This document shows positions 29,209 through 53,338 of a stretch of 64,000 nucleotides of DNA, piece by piece. A program made the position numbers and the translations under genes. The notes below the pieces were generated by a model, which saw only the letters and a program-made list of their open reading frames with translations, was not told the origin of the DNA and did not search any database. Position 1 is the stretch's first letter. Every line of letters starts with the position of its first letter. The stretch lies in the IMG/VR virus record IMGVR_UViG_3300030329_003696, positions 64,001 through 128,000 of that record, one strand, 5' to 3'. Source of the stretch: a virus.

Positions 29209-30120
29209 TTAGTGTAGTGCGTACATGGACTTAGCGTTCTTGAGATGTGAGGCACAGGCACGAATCGCTGCGTCCTTAGACTTGAGTTCGATGTCCCAGT
29301 CGTAGTCATCGCTACATGGAAAATCTACGGGCATGTCTGCGTGACTGCGTGGATTGGTCTTGTCAGGATGTGACTCACTGTAATGAAACAGTGGTTTGCA
29401 AGGCCAAGTCTCTGCACACTCTAGGTAAGTATTCTTGGCTGACGGATTGCACTTGTCGTGCAGGTTGTCGTATGTGATAGGTAAGCTAAAATACTTGAGC
29501 AGGTTATCTACATTCCAGCAACCTTTGTCTTCGTTCTCTAAGACTAAACGAGAAGTTACGCTTTGATCGCACTGGTTTAGGTTAGACATGAAGCGAGCAG
29601 CGATGTCAGCGAGATCGCCCTTAGTACAGTTGACATGGATGTTGATAGGGTTGTAGTAGCTACGCTCACAGCCTAGCTGATCCATGACCCAGCCATGATG
29701 GTTGAGTTCTAGGATCGTCTTATCTACTGACCCTTGATTCTCGCTTGCAAGCACGTTAAACTGGTCAGGATGCGTAGATAACCGCACGCCCCAGAAGTTC
29801 TTGTTTTCCCATGCGGTATCGTTGAGAGTTTCCATGATAGCTTCGTACTGAGGTACGTCTGAGATGTCGTAACCGAACTCAGGATGTGTTAGCACAGGGA
29901 ACAGATTGCTTGAAATGCGATAGCCCCAGCGGTTTTGCCAGCAGTGCAGGATAGCAAGTCTAGTGACTTTGACATTATTGAGCCAGCGTGAGCCTAGCTC
30001 GTTGAGTGCGTGAGAGACACTGTGCTGACTGCACAGGTCATTGTAACGCTTCCATGTCATGGTCTGGAAGGAGTGGCCTTGTTCTTTGAGTTCGTTACTG
30101 ATGCAACATAGATTGTACAT
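29209..30120 (-). CDS. uvsE: UV-damage endonuclease UvsE
   Basis: YRISSNLFP, RLSTHPDQFNVLAS, LVLENED, FHYSE, HAD, ELKSKD. Confidence 0.92.
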   Translation of the reverse strand: MYNLCCISNELKEQGHSFQTMTWKRYNDLCSQHSVSHALNELGSRWLNNVKVTRLAILHCWQNRWGYRISSNLFPVLTHPEFGYDISDVPQYEAIMETLNDTAWENKNFWGVRLSTHPDQFNVLASENQGSVDKTILELNHHGWVMDQLGCERSYYNPINIHVNCTKGDLADIAARFMSNLNQCDQSVTSRLVLENEDKGCWNVDNLLKYFSLPITYDNLHDKCNPSAKNTYLECAETWPCKPLFHYSESHPDKTNPRSHADMPVDFPCSDDYDWDIELKSKDAAIRACASHLKNAKSMYALH

Positions 30121-30210
30121 ACTTGTCTCCTGTTAGTTGGTTAGTATCCACTGTATTATAATTTATCTATCGGCAGATGTCAATAGGTATCTTTAATTTA
30201 TTTTAAATAT

Positions 30211-30498
30211 TTGCGTACCGACAGCGTTTATACCTACGAAGAACTATGAAAGCCAGTAGGTATATGGTAGTGTTTATAGGCAGTATCTTACAAGCTAATG
30301 GAAATTTTTTGCTAAAACCGAAGTTATCTTCGTAGGTCTAGGTTGCTCGCCAGCATTGCCTAGATTTAATTTTTCGATACCTCTGAGTGGTCGGACACTC
30401 AACTGCAACCTATACTTCTCAATGGGTCAGGAACGCAAGACTGCACCCAGTTACGTCTTTATACAAATCTATGAGAAGCGATAATACTGAACTACCAT
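30211..30498 (-). ncRNA. unassigned ~290-nt multi-pseudoknot RNA, copy 1
   Basis: ORF-free; shares invariant blocks and about 11 covarying helices with 52939-53230; lies 3' of tRNA-Leu. Confidence 0.8.
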
Positions 30499-30534
30499 TA
30501 TTATCTAATCATTATATTTAATCATTATATTTAA

Positions 30535-30619
30535 TCTCGATGGAGGGGATCGAACCCTCACTCCCAATAAGGGAACCGGATTTTAAGTCCGATGCGTCTG
30601 CCTATTCCGCCACATCGAG
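30535..30619 (-). tRNA. tRNA-Leu(TAA)
   Basis: CTCGATG/CATCGAG acceptor, CTTAAAA loop, long variable arm, GGTTCGATCC. Confidence 0.93.
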
Positions 30620-30967: not shown

Positions 30968-31106
30968 TTCACGGAGGTTGTCGCCCTGATTATTCTCAGC
31001 CGTTGCACTTTTAAGCAACCGAACACTTAGTGAGAACAGCGGTGTGTCCTGTATTATTATATTCAATCTATCGTCATTTGTCAATGGGTTCTTTAGATAA
31101 TTTCAT

Positions 31107-31384
31107 AAAAAAAGCCAGCTTTGGTAACAAGGTGCTGGCAAACCCCGTGACCTACGAATAGGTCAGTCGGCCACCTAAGCGGCCATTGCGTAATTCTCTA
31201 CGCCGTTTAAAGTTGTGATAGATTTTTAGCGTAGCCCTTCTATCAACTACGACATGCAGTCATTAACTACGCAACCAGTCGATACCATTACGCCCCCATG
31301 AGTTGGCAAGTGGAGGCGGGGAGAATCGAACTCCCGTCCTGCATTGGTTCACTAATAACGTCTACATGCTTATGCCCGAAGGCA
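31107..31384 (-). ncRNA. ssrA: circularly permuted (two-piece) tmRNA, tag (A)GVENYAMAA
   Basis: Acceptor piece (..GACGGGAGTTCGATTCTCCCCGCCTCCAC, ends 31310) precedes coding piece (GGGGGCGTAATGGTATCGAC.., starts 31297); G3.U70; tag ORF 31204-31175. Confidence 0.9.
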
Positions 31385-31385
31385 G

Positions 31386-31458
31386 TACCCCATAGGAGAA
31401 TTGAACTCCTGTTTTCGGCGTGAAAAGCCGATGTCCTAGTCCACTAGACGAATGGGGC
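31386..31458 (-). tRNA. tRNA-Glu(TTC)
   Basis: TCGGC-TTTTCAC-GCCGA anticodon arm; GTTCAATTC. Confidence 0.93.
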
Positions 31459-47274: not shown

Positions 47275-47574
47275 TCATAGTTCTGTACTCCATTCGTGAT
47301 ATTGTTCGGTACTCATAAAACTCATATCTTCACCGTGAGCAAGTACCCACGGAAAACCAAATTCATCTTCTACCCATAGTTCAAGCAAATCTAAATTGCC
47401 AGCGGCTACAGCTTCGTCAAGTACCTCAGTAGGTACAGCGACCTTCATAGAACTAATCGCTCCACCTTCAGGGGTTTCTCCAAACCACTCGCACTGTTGC
47501 CAGTTCGACGGTTTCAATATCCTGCAAAGTGTAACCATACAAACGCCCATCGGGGGCAAAATTCCATCATTCAT
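47275..47574 (-). CDS. hypothetical protein
   Basis: coupled ORF. Confidence 0.6.
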   Translation of the reverse strand: MNDGILPPMGVCMVTLCRILKPSNWQQCEWFGETPEGGAISSMKVAVPTEVLDEAVAAGNLDLLELWVEDEFGFPWVLAHGEDMSFMSTEQYHEWSTEL

Positions 47575-48008
47575 TATTCGGTCTCCAAGTCATCCCATTC
47601 AATCAGTCCACCGTTAACCATACCACGAACAAAAGCGTATTCGTTTTTGGCAAGCTGAATTTCATCGGCTTCGTTTTCGCCATAGTCAAAACCACTTTCC
47701 ATATCGACGAAATCCGTACCGCCTTTATGCGTGGTGTAAATTGCTTTTTCCTCGAATTGCTTTCTCAGCTTTTCGATGTTGCGAGCTTTTGCCGCTTTCG
47801 CTTTTTGGTGTGCGGTTTCGGTTTCTTCTTCTTCCGCAATCAATTCATTCAAGCGTGCAAGCGTACGACCACCACGAATCTTGTCGTGATACTTTTCAGG
47901 CAGCAAATCGTTAGGAACTTCGATGCACTCAGCGAACACGCCTTCAACGTGTGCATTGAGTTCGTCGATGTTGTTGAATCCGCAGTAAGGTTTAGTTGAG
48001 TCTAGCAT
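47574..48008 (-). CDS. hypothetical protein
   Basis: RBS GAAAGGA, promoter 48042-48070. Confidence 0.7.
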   Translation of the reverse strand: MLDSTKPYCGFNNIDELNAHVEGVFAECIEVPNDLLPEKYHDKIRGGRTLARLNELIAEEEETETAHQKAKAAKARNIEKLRKQFEEKAIYTTHKGGTDFVDMESGFDYGENEADEIQLAKNEYAFVRGMVNGGLIEWDDLETE

Positions 48009-48066
48009 AGTTTTCCTTTCGAGTGTGTTTTGTATATCTAAATTTTACTTTATGAAATTGTATTTG

Positions 48067-48222
48067 TCAAGGGGTTTCAGAAACTTTTTCCGACTTTTTT
48101 GCTTCTTTGTCTATGACAACCATAGCGTCAATAATAGCGTTTGTGGCTGCCCTTGATGCTCCGGCTTCCTTAGCCTTGTGCCATACTTCCCACAACAGTG
48201 ATTTTAGTTCTTTCGTTTTCAT
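48067..48222 (-). CDS. small hypothetical protein
   Basis: RBS and promoter 48248-48276. Confidence 0.55.
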   Translation of the reverse strand: MKTKELKSLLWEVWHKAKEAGASRAATNAIIDAMVVIDKEAKKSEKVSETP

Positions 48223-48571
48223 TTTCTTTCCTTTCGTTATGTTTATCATTATACCATAATTATCGGCACTTGTCAATAGCAATCTTAACTAATTCTCATA
48301 ATAATTTAATATTTTTGTGACAACCCAGCCGACTGGAATCAACAACGCCGGAACAATTACGAACATCATCAATTCTTCGTTTTCAATCATCCACTCAAAA
48401 CTCATAGCTTTCCTTTCGTGTTAACTTCTTAAGTCTATCATATATATCGGCCACTGTCAAGGGCAATCTTTAGAAAATCTCAAAAAAAAGGCAAAAAATC
48501 CCGGCCGGGGCCGCCCGGATCGACTCACTGTCAATAGGGAAAGTTTGAAAAAGACAAGTTTTTCCCAGTTT

Positions 48572-48784
48572 TTAGAACCCGCCTAATCCGTGCATGTCGT
48601 GCAACACATCCCAAGCCGATTGGGAAGCGTTCCATTCATCGACAGTCATTCCGAATTGTTCATGAATTGGGATCTCTTTGACTTCCGATTCTTTCCAGCT
48701 ATTGCCGTTTGCAATGCTTGGCTTGTCAGAGCCACCGATTAACAAATACTGTTTTCCCTGTTCGGGCTTATCTTTTTTAGTCAT
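48572..48784 (-). CDS. hypothetical protein
   Basis: RBS GAAAGGA. Confidence 0.6.
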   Translation of the reverse strand: MTKKDKPEQGKQYLLIGGSDKPSIANGNSWKESEVKEIPIHEQFGMTVDEWNASQSAWDVLHDMHGLGGF

Positions 48785-48840
48785 AATCTTTCCTTTCGTT
48801 GATTTCTTATATTATTATTATCGTCTATGGGCGTGACACG

Positions 48841-49053
48841 TTAGGTCATCCGAACGTATTTTCCTACAAGTTTATGCCACTTTTTCATGACATATTCGTA
48901 TTTGCCCTGACACTCAGGATTGCCTATTGCAGCTCCGGTTGAACCTACCCAACTACAGATTGCCCACTTGTTTGTATGATTGCATCGCACTAGGTAACGC
49001 ATGCCGGTTGGCGTATCTTTGGTCATTCTGATTGTATAAGGTTGGTAGTTCAT
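48841..49053 (-). CDS. hypothetical protein (sigma54-type promoter upstream)
   Basis: start MNYQPY after GAAAGGA. Confidence 0.6.
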   Translation of the reverse strand: MNYQPYTIRMTKDTPTGMRYLVRCNHTNKWAICSWVGSTGAAIGNPECQGKYEYVMKKWHKLVGKYVRMT

Positions 49054-49090
49054 AATCTTTCCTTTCGATTGCTTTCTATAGTATATATAG

Positions 49091-49340
49091 TGCATTACCC
49101 GTGCCAAACGTGCCGATTGAGCCAATAAAATAAAATAATCTTTTATTAGCCTGTAAAACAAGGGGTTTCAGAACATAAATAAATTTTTGTGTTTTGGCAT
49201 GGGTTTTGGCATGGCTTGAAAAGTGTTATCAAATTGATACAACCTGTTATCAAATTGTCCTAATGCTACTATACAAGTATAATACGAGGTAACCAAAAAT
49301 CAAAATGATGACACATTAACATAGAGCAAATACCGTGCCA
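49091..49340 (-). promoter_or_regulatory. two sigma54-type boxes plus tandem TGTTATCAAATTG sites
   Basis: TGGCACG-GGTA-ATGCA (49106-49091), TGGCACG-GTAT-TTGCT (49340-49325); repeats at 49224 and 49245. Confidence 0.6.
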
Positions 49341-49420
49341 AAAATTGCCGACCGGGCGGCCCCGGAGCTGGTGGCTGTCAATAGGGAAAGTTTGAAAAAG
49401 ACAAACTTTTTCCTAGTTTT

Positions 49421-49945
49421 TTATAGCTCATCTGGGAAGTCTTCCATGTCAAACAGCTCAACGTGTTTGTGTACCAAGTCCAGAGGGACGGGAAGATTGT
49501 ACCCTTTGCGGCTTTCCTTTCGTTTAGAAGCCCACTGATCCCAGAACCTTTCGCTAGTTGTCCATTTCAATATGATTCCCTCGGTCGGATGAACAAAAGC
49601 GAAAACAATATACTCAAACGATTCCGGACATATTCCCATAAAGAAAAACCGTTTATTAGTCTGATTGCTATTGGTCACCAAAGCCGATTTTACCTCAACT
49701 CTCACAGGGCGGTCTGTAAGCTCAACCGTAATATCCCACTCGCCCGTATGAACGGTTTGAGTTGCTTCAAAGCCCATATTTTTAATGTGTGAGAAGACTA
49801 CGCTTTCAATGCGTGTTCCTCGGTTTGTGGAAGTCATCTTTGACGCAGCGAAAGAGGATGGGCAATGATCCCCATAAAGCGACTTGTTTCCTTCTTGTCC
49901 TTCTGCGTCGATTAACTGATCAAGTGTGATTTCGTTGTAGCTCAT
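49421..49945 (-). CDS. PD-(D/E)XK-like nuclease
   Basis: RGTRIE...WDITV...VEVKSA. Confidence 0.65.
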   Translation of the reverse strand: MSYNEITLDQLIDAEGQEGNKSLYGDHCPSSFAASKMTSTNRGTRIESVVFSHIKNMGFEATQTVHTGEWDITVELTDRPVRVEVKSALVTNSNQTNKRFFFMGICPESFEYIVFAFVHPTEGIILKWTTSERFWDQWASKRKESRKGYNLPVPLDLVHKHVELFDMEDFPDEL

Positions 49946-50046
49946 TTTTTTACCTTTGCTTGTGTTGTGCTTAATTGCTTATGTCTTAATTATAATATAC
50001 TTATCGGATTTGTCAAGGGGAATCTTTAATAATTCCCAAAGTTTTT

Positions 50047-50355
50047 TTATCCTGCTACCCATGCGTGCAACGATGCTTCATCCCATTTACGGGGAAAGCC
50101 CGAAGCATCGCAATCGCTAGGGCAACCGCACTGAATCCAAACCTTGGCCGAATTCAGAAGCTCGCTCAATGGAGCGTATGGCGAATAATTGAAAACCATA
50201 GCGTTGCCGATTGGATCAACGACGTAAGCAATCAGCTTGGTAACCATTACGTTACCATCTGGATCGAGTTCGCTAATCTTATCAACCCATAGGGTATGAT
50301 CTTCAAGGCCGTAGTTTTCAGAATTAAAGATATTTTTAACAGCTTCAGTTTTCAT
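50047..50355 (-). CDS. hypothetical protein
   Basis: RBS and own promoter. Confidence 0.65.
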   Translation of the reverse strand: MKTEAVKNIFNSENYGLEDHTLWVDKISELDPDGNVMVTKLIAYVVDPIGNAMVFNYSPYAPLSELLNSAKVWIQCGCPSDCDASGFPRKWDEASLHAWVAG

Positions 50356-50432
50356 TTTAACTTTCCTTTGTGTTGTTTTGTTATGTTCTTATTATACTAT
50401 AACTATCGGCAAAAGTCAAGGGGTATCTTGAA

Positions 50433-50546
50433 CTATTTTTCAAAAATATTGAAATAAATAATGTGTGCCCCAAGCGTTGCGATTGATACAATAATGCCGG
50501 TTGAAACGATAATCTTCGAGAGAATTTCTAATTGTGCCATTTTCAT
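50433..50546 (-). CDS. 37-aa membrane peptide (..HIIYFNIFEK)
   Basis: manual translation; own promoter and RBS; paralog at 51699-51797. Confidence 0.65.
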   Translation of the reverse strand: MKMAQLEILSKIIVSTGIIVSIATLGAHIIYFNIFEK

Positions 50547-50732
50547 TTTCCTTTGTGTTGTGTTTTTGTTATGCTTCTATTATACATAGATCGGCAGAAA
50601 TGTCAATAGGCTTTAGCTAAAAATCCAGAAAAAAAGCAAAGTTTTTCCGGGGCCGCCCGGATCGCCCAGGTGTCAACAGTAAATCTGGTCTTTTTGTCGA
50701 AGTACTGTGACGCCCCTAGGCGATTGGTTAGG

Positions 50733-51014
50733 CTAAGACGGCAAGCATCCGTCAACTATACCACCGTGAGCGTCAAGCTCTGCCTGTACTACCTCAATCG
50801 GCACGAAACCATAAACGGTCTCGGTGTAGTCGCTAGTACCGCACAGCTCTGCATAGTTGCGTAGCTCTGCTGTCTTTGGTGTAGTGGTAGGAAATCCACA
50901 CTCTACAGTAAGCAGGTTGCCTGCTGTGTTACGTTGGCAGTAGCTACCATCGTGAGCCTGTACGCTGATATTAAAGCCATCGTTGCAAGTGATTCTAGGA
51001 TTGTGATTGTACAT
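50733..51014 (-). CDS. conserved phage protein
   Basis: CNDGFNISVQA...YC...VECGFP...TVYGFVP...HGG. Confidence 0.75.
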   Translation of the reverse strand: MYNHNPRITCNDGFNISVQAHDGSYCQRNTAGNLLTVECGFPTTTPKTAELRNYAELCGTSDYTETVYGFVPIEVVQAELDAHGGIVDGCLPS

Positions 51015-51130
51015 AAGATAAACCTTTTCTAGTATAGTGTAGTTGTGTTGGCCATTGTTATTCTCTTAGGCTTGAGTGGTTATTGTTATAGTGTTAAACC
51101 TTCACTCAGGAATAGCTACACGCTACCCAT

Positions 51131-51364
51131 CTACTCGTTGGCGGTTCCGTACTTCTCGAAGTATCGACGCATAGCGTCCATCTTGGATTGCGGTACTTCC
51201 GTAACGCTGATAGTCTCAACGTCATTATGATAATGATTGTAACGGAAGCGGGTTTCACCGTGTTCGTTGGTGAATAGCGAATCCTGCCCAACAGTGCAGA
51301 ATGTAGTTTCTCGACCTGTTACTGGGTGTATAGCCAGAACGTCAAAGTTTTTTTTGTTAGTCAT
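51131..51364 (-). CDS. hypothetical protein
   Basis: RBS and own promoter. Confidence 0.6.
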   Translation of the reverse strand: MTNKKNFDVLAIHPVTGRETTFCTVGQDSLFTNEHGETRFRYNHYHNDVETISVTEVPQSKMDAMRRYFEKYGTANE

Positions 51365-51443
51365 ATTGTTACCTTTCGTGAATGACTGTTGTGTGTTATG
51401 CTTTAAGTATACCATACTTATCGGCGTTTGTCAAGTGGTTTCT

Positions 51444-51614
51444 TTAACTATTCATGATATTTTTTAGAATATCTTTTCTAGCCCAAAGCACTTCCAATTC
51501 GTTCATTATCTCAGTTTTCTTATAGCGTGAACGTGCGTTGGCGTGTTCGTTGACTTTCGCTTCAATTTGTCGGTTAGTCGTGAACAGTTTCAGTTTAGCT
51601 TCGTTGCGAGTCAT
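51444..51614 (-). CDS. 56-aa helical protein
   Basis: manual translation MTRNEAKLKL..; RBS GAAAGGA and promoter. Confidence 0.6.
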   Translation of the reverse strand: MTRNEAKLKLFTTNRQIEAKVNEHANARSRYKKTEIMNELEVLWARKDILKNIMNS

Positions 51615-51698
51615 GTTGTGTTCCTTTCGAGAACGTTGTTTAATTGTTATGTCTTAAGTATATTATATATATCGGCAAAAGTCAATAGCAATCTTTAA

Positions 51699-51797
51699 TT
51701 ATTTTCCAAGAATATTAAAATAAATTATGTGTCCGATTAAACCTGCGAAAGCTGTTACTGTGCCGATTGTTACGATTGTTGTTGCGATGATTGTCAT
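51699..51797 (-). CDS. 32-aa membrane peptide (..HIIYFNILGK)
   Basis: manual translation; own promoter and RBS. Confidence 0.65.
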   Translation of the reverse strand: MTIIATTIVTIGTVTAFAGLIGHIIYFNILGK

Positions 51798-52051
51798 AGT
51801 TAACCTTTCGTTGTTGTTTGTTATGCTTTAAGTATATCATAAAGATCGGCACTTGTCAATAGTAAACTGAAATAATTCTGAAAAAAAACAGAAAAAATCT
51901 GATCCGGGCCCCCCCAGCTTATGTGGTGGGTGTTTTATCTTCGATGTCAATCTACTTTTCAATAAGAAAAAAGCCCTAGGTGGTTCAGTCACAATTCGGA
52001 GCACTCTCTAGGGTTGTCTTACCTAAACCACACCATTAAAGTAAATAGGTA

Positions 52052-52938: not shown

Positions 52939-53230
52939 TTACATACCAAGACCATTTATACCTGTAAAGATATTACAAGCACTTTAGTTGAGATAGGAAG
53001 CAGTTAGGTCTTCAACACTAATTTCTTTACACTCACTCAATAAATTTGCCTTGAGGCCTTTACAGGTCTAGGTTGGTTGGTCACACAGAGCCTAGATTTC
53101 AATTTTGCCTAACCTTGGAGTCCTTGGAAACTCGCCGGTAACTTCCTAATTCAGCTGGACTTAGGTGAGGCTACAGCCCAATTATTCACTTTATACAAAT
53201 ATTTGCTGAATCTGATCACTTTTCAACCAT
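52939..53230 (-). ncRNA. unassigned ~290-nt multi-pseudoknot RNA, copy 2
   Basis: homologous to 30211-30498; promoter TTGCTA-17-TAGAAT at 53270-53242. Confidence 0.8.
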
Positions 53231-53338
53231 TGATCTACTATATTCTAGCTCTTTTTACAAGTTTTAGCAAAACGTTTTTTGGAATTTTGCCCTCTTCTGT
53301 GTATAATAGGATGGAGAGACAGTAACAAGCACTAAGAT

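Follow-up and report, generated by a model that had tools for sequence, protein, structure and literature searches.

Large, structurally complex non-coding RNAs of bacteria and phages are few, and those of known function are mostly ribozymes or core machines. The raiA and ARRPOF RNAs are encoded on chromosomes or plasmids, in Firmicutes/Actinobacteria and Fusobacterium. Theta ribozymes are tRNA-associated, HDV-like phage ribozymes of ~60–90 nucleotides, which cleave at a fixed tRNA 3′ position. Group I and II introns interrupt a gene and are marked by the P7 G-binding site or the domain V catalytic triad; RNase P RNA has its 5′ and 3′ ends paired in P1 and a conserved CR-I/CR-V P4 pseudoknot; and phi29 pRNA is a virion-associated ring on a terminase-less packaging motor.

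Here, we describe an apparently undescribed family of structured non-coding RNAs of ~300 nucleotides with a distinct architecture, of which two genes lie in a 64,000-nucleotide stretch of viral DNA (the window). GOLLD and ROOL are similar to this family in being phage-borne, often located by tRNA clusters, rich in pseudoknots and encoded by independent genes; the raiA motif (205 nucleotides, a monomer) and ARRPOF (255 nucleotides, a dimer) share its size class and its ornate, compact fold (PMC12286853, PMC12990946). An earlier reading of the window, made from the sequence only, had set GOLLD and ROOL aside as much longer, rightly: they measure 550–830 nucleotides against 263–368 nucleotides in the new family (n = 62), all of it below the >~550 nucleotides expected of their members. 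No covariance-model match links them to the new family, and the order of helices differs, as judged from text descriptions of these RNAs. Unlike GOLLD and ROOL, the new family has two paralogous classes per genome, and was found in only one clade of probably lytic phages. Its class B shares their location in tRNA islands, lying 2–199 nucleotides after tRNA genes in 10 of 11 aligned members, whereas class A is not linked to tRNA genes. The new family falls outside GOLLD and ROOL, although it resembles ornate phage RNAs in its setting, and has an architecture of its own. It also differs from raiA and ARRPOF in lacking an Rfam match.

Theta ribozymes are likewise phage RNAs that have nested pseudoknots and lie immediately 3′ of tRNA genes, but the new RNAs are ~300 nucleotides in size, have no HDV-like topology and, over all cases examined for class B, lie at variable distances (2 to ~2000 nucleotides) from the tRNA. 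The absence of intron and RNase P signatures, as first read from the sequence, also holds. The new RNA is intergenic, with its own promoter, variable flanks, an unbulged helix P8 and no Rfam intron match. Its 5′ end forms a local hairpin and its 3′ tail pairs with two separate loops, so that the ends are not paired together, and RNase P CR motifs were not found in the family consensus.

Database searches gave a consistent picture. Rfam 15 returned no match over copy 1 or copy 2 at the gathering threshold, and up to E = 10 the best matches of both copies were to unrelated eukaryotic families at 15–18 bits; a third class of the RNA (class C, see below) and another class B copy were likewise without match. 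Elsewhere in the window, Rfam 15 recognised four tRNAs and a permuted tmRNA. Copy 1, copy 2 and class C had no blastn match in 50,697 GenBank phages. The exact 3′ motif, which covers only those members that bear it, occurred once in 185,579 prokaryote genomes, in a non-member. Literature searches by motif and description did not find the family, and a catalogue of IMG/VR candidates lists only motifs of 29–151 nucleotides, among which a fragment of the family could figure (PMC10690425). The suggestion of a compact, heavily pseudoknotted and possibly undescribed family is thus borne out, by the lack of an Rfam match together with strong covariation among homologues.

Copy 1 belongs to class B and occupies positions 30214–30505 of the window on the minus strand, linked to tRNA genes. 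Copy 2 belongs to class A (52942–53237, minus strand) and lies at a strand switch, back-to-back with an operon of sigma-like, terminase and portal genes. The two are 53% identical, with a local alignment score of 160.5, compared with 65 ± 8 (maximum 96) in 1000 base-shuffles and a maximum of 84.5 for unrelated tiles of the window. An HMM built from both copies matches these two sites only in the virus record that holds the window (166,833 bp, rated 100% complete). The five invariant blocks recognised by the sequence-only reading recur in the same order, and all 22 helix strands were found where it had placed them. It was also correct in describing copy 1 as an ORF-free RNA downstream of tRNA-Leu, since tRNA-Leu(UAA) (30535–30619, minus strand) ends 30 nucleotides upstream, but the gene starts about 7 nucleotides further upstream than proposed, with a 5′ hairpin from 30505. 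Across members, the longest stop-free frame has a median of 53 amino acids and lengths are spread over the three frames, as in non-coding DNA. The structure does not emerge from minimum free energy folding by itself (z = −0.91), which is expected of a fold dominated by pseudoknots. We consider it almost certain that this is a stand-alone structured RNA gene.

The family currently counts 64 full-length members: 62 unique ones from pattern scans and iterative nhmmer searches, and two more from whole-genome searches. Every member lies in a metagenomic or viral contig. Pairwise identity over core columns averages 62% (minimum 35%). Two members, L387 and L392, are natural minimal versions of 263–264 nucleotides.

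The architecture consists of 13–14 helices, including five crossing pairings (pkA, pkC, pkD, pkE and P8). In a structure-blind MAFFT alignment (A6) of 61 members, a 59-pair model is 96.2% paired, with double-sided changes at 49 of the 59 pairs; no shuffle attains this pairing, and slid partners reach 33–42%. Covariation was assessed by a G-test over all column pairs, with a null simulated along the tree. This check, which the sequence-only reading had called for, yielded 26 significant pairs, of which 20 fall in proposed helices, 4 in proposed helices split between registers and 2 are non-canonical. P1, pkA, P4, P5, pkD, P6, P7, P7a and P8 each contain at least one significant pair, and pkE is significant within the proposed pair set only. 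Nine of the eleven pairings originally proposed are upheld by covariation, and the view that several of them cross as pseudoknots is supported in homologues. The remaining two are unsupported: TTGC/GCAA (TTAC/GTAA in copy 2) is 21–77% paired without covariation, hence not conserved, and TTTGTA/TATAAA shows no compensatory change, has a C·A mismatch in 15 of 61 members and is unproven. The pairing TCTAGG/CCTAGA was confirmed, but is not invariant as had been thought, for it covaries across the family. Five helices were added (P1, P3b, P7a and the pseudoknots pkC and pkE).

In copy 1, with all positions on the minus strand, the RNA opens with hairpin P1 (30505–30499/30486–30480, spanning 30480–30505; 6/6 pairs significant), whose loop forms pkA (30498–30491 with 30271–30264; 2 pairs significant). 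A 5′ domain follows (30415–30478), made up of P2 (30478–30472/30421–30415), P3a (30449–30445/30427–30423), a bulged G, P3b (30443–30441/30430–30428) and pkC (30456–30451/30438–30433). P2, P3 and pkC align poorly, and the evidence for this domain comes from an alignment-free swap test, in which the native partner was the stronger in 96%, 85% and 72% of comparisons, respectively, and from an anchored parse, itself fitted to structure, in which the strands of all three change together; the pkC duplex reaches −1 kcal/mol or lower in 48 of 61 members. The three-way junction core (30275–30414), identified by covariation, contains P4 (30414–30408/30281–30275), P5 (30401–30396/30389–30384), P6 (30381–30376/30287–30282), P7 (30364–30359/30342–30337) and P7a (30355–30353/30346–30344). 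P4 terminates in a U·G at the P4/P6 junction, which is invariant in 61 of 61 members and present in class C too. The long-range helix P8 (30337–30327/30242–30232) also emerged from the covariation tests. Finally, the 3′ tail is locked twice (30218–30394), by pkD to the P5 loop (30394–30390 with 30222–30218; 1 pair significant over all pairs) and by pkE to the P7a loop (30351–30348 with 30226–30223; 2 pairs significant in the proposed set only). Both RNA ends are thereby tied in: the first loop finds its partner near position 250, and the final nine conserved bases are held by pairing to two separate hairpin loops. About 56 positions are near-invariant, many of them within junctions.

The 3′ strand of P8 can alternatively pair with a local strand just upstream, to form helix Y (30264–30256/30237–30229 in copy 1, minus strand). 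Y and P8 overlap by about four pairs, with the AGGU of the same 3′ strand in common, and P8 is the stronger duplex (mean −14.0 versus −7.7 kcal/mol). Y is not significant in the tree-aware G-test on columns of the 61 members, and its support comes from case-by-case tracking of changes, to which template-switch mutation could contribute. A C in column 366 is matched by G in Y in 33 of 44 cases, and a U there by A or G in 6 of 8; a C in column 372 is matched by G in 6 of 8. In L387 and L484 the same base has changed in all three strands (Y and both of P8). These changes are suggestive of a folding hand-over or a two-state toggle; the column test alone leaves Y unproven.

In related phages, class A is replaced by class C, likewise undescribed and represented by 33 unique sequences of ~340–390 nucleotides (for example L389:750-1107, minus strand, L433 and about 30 other loci). 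Cross-HMM comparison detected no sequence similarity between class C and classes A and B. The helices of class C nonetheless map one to one onto those of A and B, with 24 of 24 strands in identical order, and mostly show double-sided changes; P8 and Y are invariable in a sample of low power (effective number 16). Since the mapping was made by eye, homology of class C to A and B is a strong inference and not a statistic. Three loci (L429, L432 and L435) carry another 5′ domain upon the same class C 3′ core. The new family thus adds a five-pseudoknot fold in 300 nucleotides, with a natural 263-nucleotide minimal version and a class of the same topology but unrelated sequence, which together make it a ready target for cryo-EM and structure prediction, with essential nucleotides pinpointed, and a smaller test case for what RNAs of the GOLLD and ROOL type do.

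Copy 1 and copy 2 are not a recent duplication; they represent paralogous classes that have long persisted, each at a fixed place in the genome, and class B forms a separate branch of the tree. Class A sits where the early strand gives way to the operon of sigma-like gene, terminase and portal, with no tRNA nearby, and class B at or near the tRNA/tmRNA region. When loci of the clade were chosen through the adjacent sigma-like protein and not through the RNA itself, the class A slot in 64 loci with enough sequence held class A in 50, class C in 10 and neither in 4 (relatives lacking the RNA at this slot include L398, L400 and L405). All four near-complete genomes carry two copies within the reach of the searches, A and B in G000, G001 and G002, and C and B in G006. 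That almost every sampled member of the clade has retained two versions implies a real role in infection. The close relative G001 has 24 tRNA matches at 148100–165008 of its contig C1, compared with 4 in the genome of the window, and the same two RNA copies.

Promoter signals accompany both classes. In 49 of 50 non-B members (background 5.6%), a −10 box precedes the invariant AUG of the loop by 9–13 nucleotides, and in copy 2 it is part of the promoter TTGCTA-17-TAGAAT (53242–53270, minus strand). Copy 1 has a TATAAT box (30511–30516, minus strand) 6 nucleotides before P1, inside a 13-nucleotide tandem repeat. Further upstream, a perfect sigma-70 promoter with a 12/12 match (31056–31084, minus strand) probably drives transcription of, in order, tRNA-Ile, tRNA-Arg, a 64-amino acid ORF, tRNA-Leu and copy 1. 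Between class B and its downstream gene there is usually another promoter, here a perfect sigma-70 promoter (30155–30183, minus strand) between copy 1 and uvdE (29209–30120). In the same region of the minus strand, an unannotated, hairpin-rich leader without Rfam match extends from the perfect promoter to tRNA-Ile (30970–31045), and a phage two-piece (permuted) tmRNA whose tag ends in ENYAMAA (31084–31400) is conserved in related phages.

The carriers form a clade of uncultured ~165-kb bacterial viruses, with a terminase only ~24% identical to those of cultured phages. Beyond the window, three DUF1501 genes stand in tandem (G000:C1:55051-59532), each with a twin-arginine-like N-terminus. They are conserved at 75–90% in many related contigs, an unusual auxiliary gene set for a phage, and one of them has close relatives in Tara ocean data. 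DUF1501 is concentrated in Planctomycetes, Verrucomicrobia and Lentisphaerae (PMC3542564), and these three genes point to a PVC bacterium, probably a planctomycete, as the host. A conserved element (51900–52030 of the window, minus strand), with the motifs TTTAGGTAAGAC, GAACCACC and GAAGATAAAAC followed by a C/G tract, is located downstream of the class A and class C RNAs and occurs too in relatives that lack the RNA. Of 79 loci, 63 have a contig end on the element side of the sigma-like gene and 19 on its other side, at no fixed distance. The element looks like a DNA site, for example a packaging start, a genome end or an origin.

From this context, the RNA would be transcribed by the host sigma-70 polymerase as an independent molecule: class A would use its own promoter, and class B would either rely on its own −10 box or be excised from a tRNA transcript. 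With both ends tied into the fold it would be expected to resist exonucleases, and would act in trans. By analogy with GOLLD, ROOL and raiA, it could be a stable structural RNA that serves as scaffold or decoy during host takeover, binding a host or phage protein or self-assembling through kissing pairs. Helix Y may form first during transcription and then pass its strand to P8 by strand exchange, as a programmed folding path or a two-state toggle. We tentatively place this mechanism, a stand-alone, end-protected scaffold or decoy acting in trans, at a little below an even chance. No co-inherited RNA-binding protein partner was identified, and the lack of the RNA at the class A slot of some relatives also counts against this mechanism. 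A conserved divergent 234-amino acid protein was considered and rejected as a partner, being very variable, with its sole conserved part matching a cyanophage motif. Neither copy shows complementarity above 13 nucleotides to the rest of the genome, with same-sequence and opposite-strand matches included, so nothing points to an antisense target within the phage. Oligomerisation is not to be assumed, as raiA of similar size is a monomer (PMC12286853). In ROOL, however, a kissing pair predicted from covariation was first read as intramolecular and proved to be intermolecular (PMC12286853), and some pairs in the new family may therefore join separate molecules; covariation does not separate the two kinds of pair.

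The sequence-only reading had offered a ribozyme-like or a scaffold RNA, and these remain the right pair of options, both inferred. As a ribozyme of a new class, the RNA could for instance act in trans as a nuclease or ligase in the maturation or repair of phage tRNA or tmRNA, with the Y/P8 exchange as a step of the catalytic cycle. The near-invariant, often junctional positions fit a catalytic core as well as a scaffold or decoy, and to that extent count against the latter. The compact multi-pseudoknot fold, the invariant U·G, an invariant bulged G, A-rich junctions, the conserved alternative pairing and the proximity of class B to tRNA 3′ ends (2–31 nucleotides in 6 members) all agree with catalysis. 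The tRNA distance nevertheless ranges from 2 nucleotides to about 2 kb, so that a fixed self-cleavage site is missing; class A has no nearby tRNA, there is no interrupted gene or exon, and Rfam ribozymes give no match even at E = 10. We regard this ribozyme reading as possible though unlikely. A broader proposal, in which A/B and C, diverged beyond sequence recognition around one 12-helix topology with Y/P8 strand exchange, would be a large natural ribozyme of a new class, or an RNA machine with two states, deployed in trans on tRNA or the translation machinery, appears to us distinctly unlikely.

A packaging or virion RNA similar to phi29 pRNA, acting as an oligomer on the portal or as a mark of the packaging start, would suit the back-to-back position of class A with the terminase and portal operon, its distance of 50–900 nucleotides from the conserved DNA element, which may be a genome end, and loop–tail kissing pairs that could be intermolecular. 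The RNA-carrying phage, however, has a conventional large terminase; the promoters, on the early strand, are of host sigma-70 type, class B is located with the tRNA genes, and relatives without the RNA retain the element, all of which make a packaging RNA improbable.

We consider it very improbable that the RNA is a cis-acting riboswitch or translation leader of the downstream gene. Two competing helices exist, and an ORF starts at most 40 nucleotides from the class A 3′ end in ~12 of 31 loci, including the UDP-glucose dehydrogenase of the window. Yet the genes downstream of class A are mutually unrelated (sugar dehydrogenase, HNH nucleases, cytidylyltransferase) or absent, with no such ORF in most loci, which disfavours a cis regulator; a promoter separates class B from its downstream gene, and both Y and P8 lie clear of any ribosome-binding site or terminator.

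The least probable reading, and a largely refuted one, is that the RNA belongs to a mobile element as its guide or scaffold (as do HEARO/omega RNAs, bridge RNAs and the ncRNAs of retrons and DRTs) or is a remnant of such an element: the HNH nucleases after class A in ~8 loci and the RuvC-fold, IS110-like ORF beside the RNA in 3 loci are sporadic associations, the latter ORF is missing from five large RNA-carrying genomes and has a repeat array of its own, and the RNA, unlike a mobile element, stays at fixed orthologous slots, with no reverse transcriptase (PF00078; controls matched) in the complete genome, no TnpB in G000 and no adjacent TnpB or IS110 gene inherited together with the RNA. The genome also has no match to TROVE/Ro60 (PF05731), the gene expected near a Y RNA, which again disfavours a guide RNA.

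The HNH nucleases are free-standing, of homing endonuclease type, and directly follow class A RNAs (L206:4352-5131, L181, L266, L306 and L321), which suggests that this site is an insertion hotspot for them. The RuvC-like protein (~377 amino acids; L081:11558-12685, plus strand; L218:7949-9094, minus strand; L108:1994-3127, plus strand) has a RuvC-like N-terminus and no Pfam match, and a low-confidence model of it weakly resembles, over its full length, the fold of IS110 bridge recombinases (E about 0.03). Its ORF is flanked by short GGGTTCA/GGATTCA repeats, about nine of them in L108:1640-1960, and it may possibly belong to an RNA-guided system of the IS110, TIGR-Tas or VIPR type. Finally, small ORFs at 42000–51900 of the window are preceded by more than 12 repeats of an early-promoter cassette and by a GC-rich palindrome in several copies, a pattern typical of a host-takeover region.
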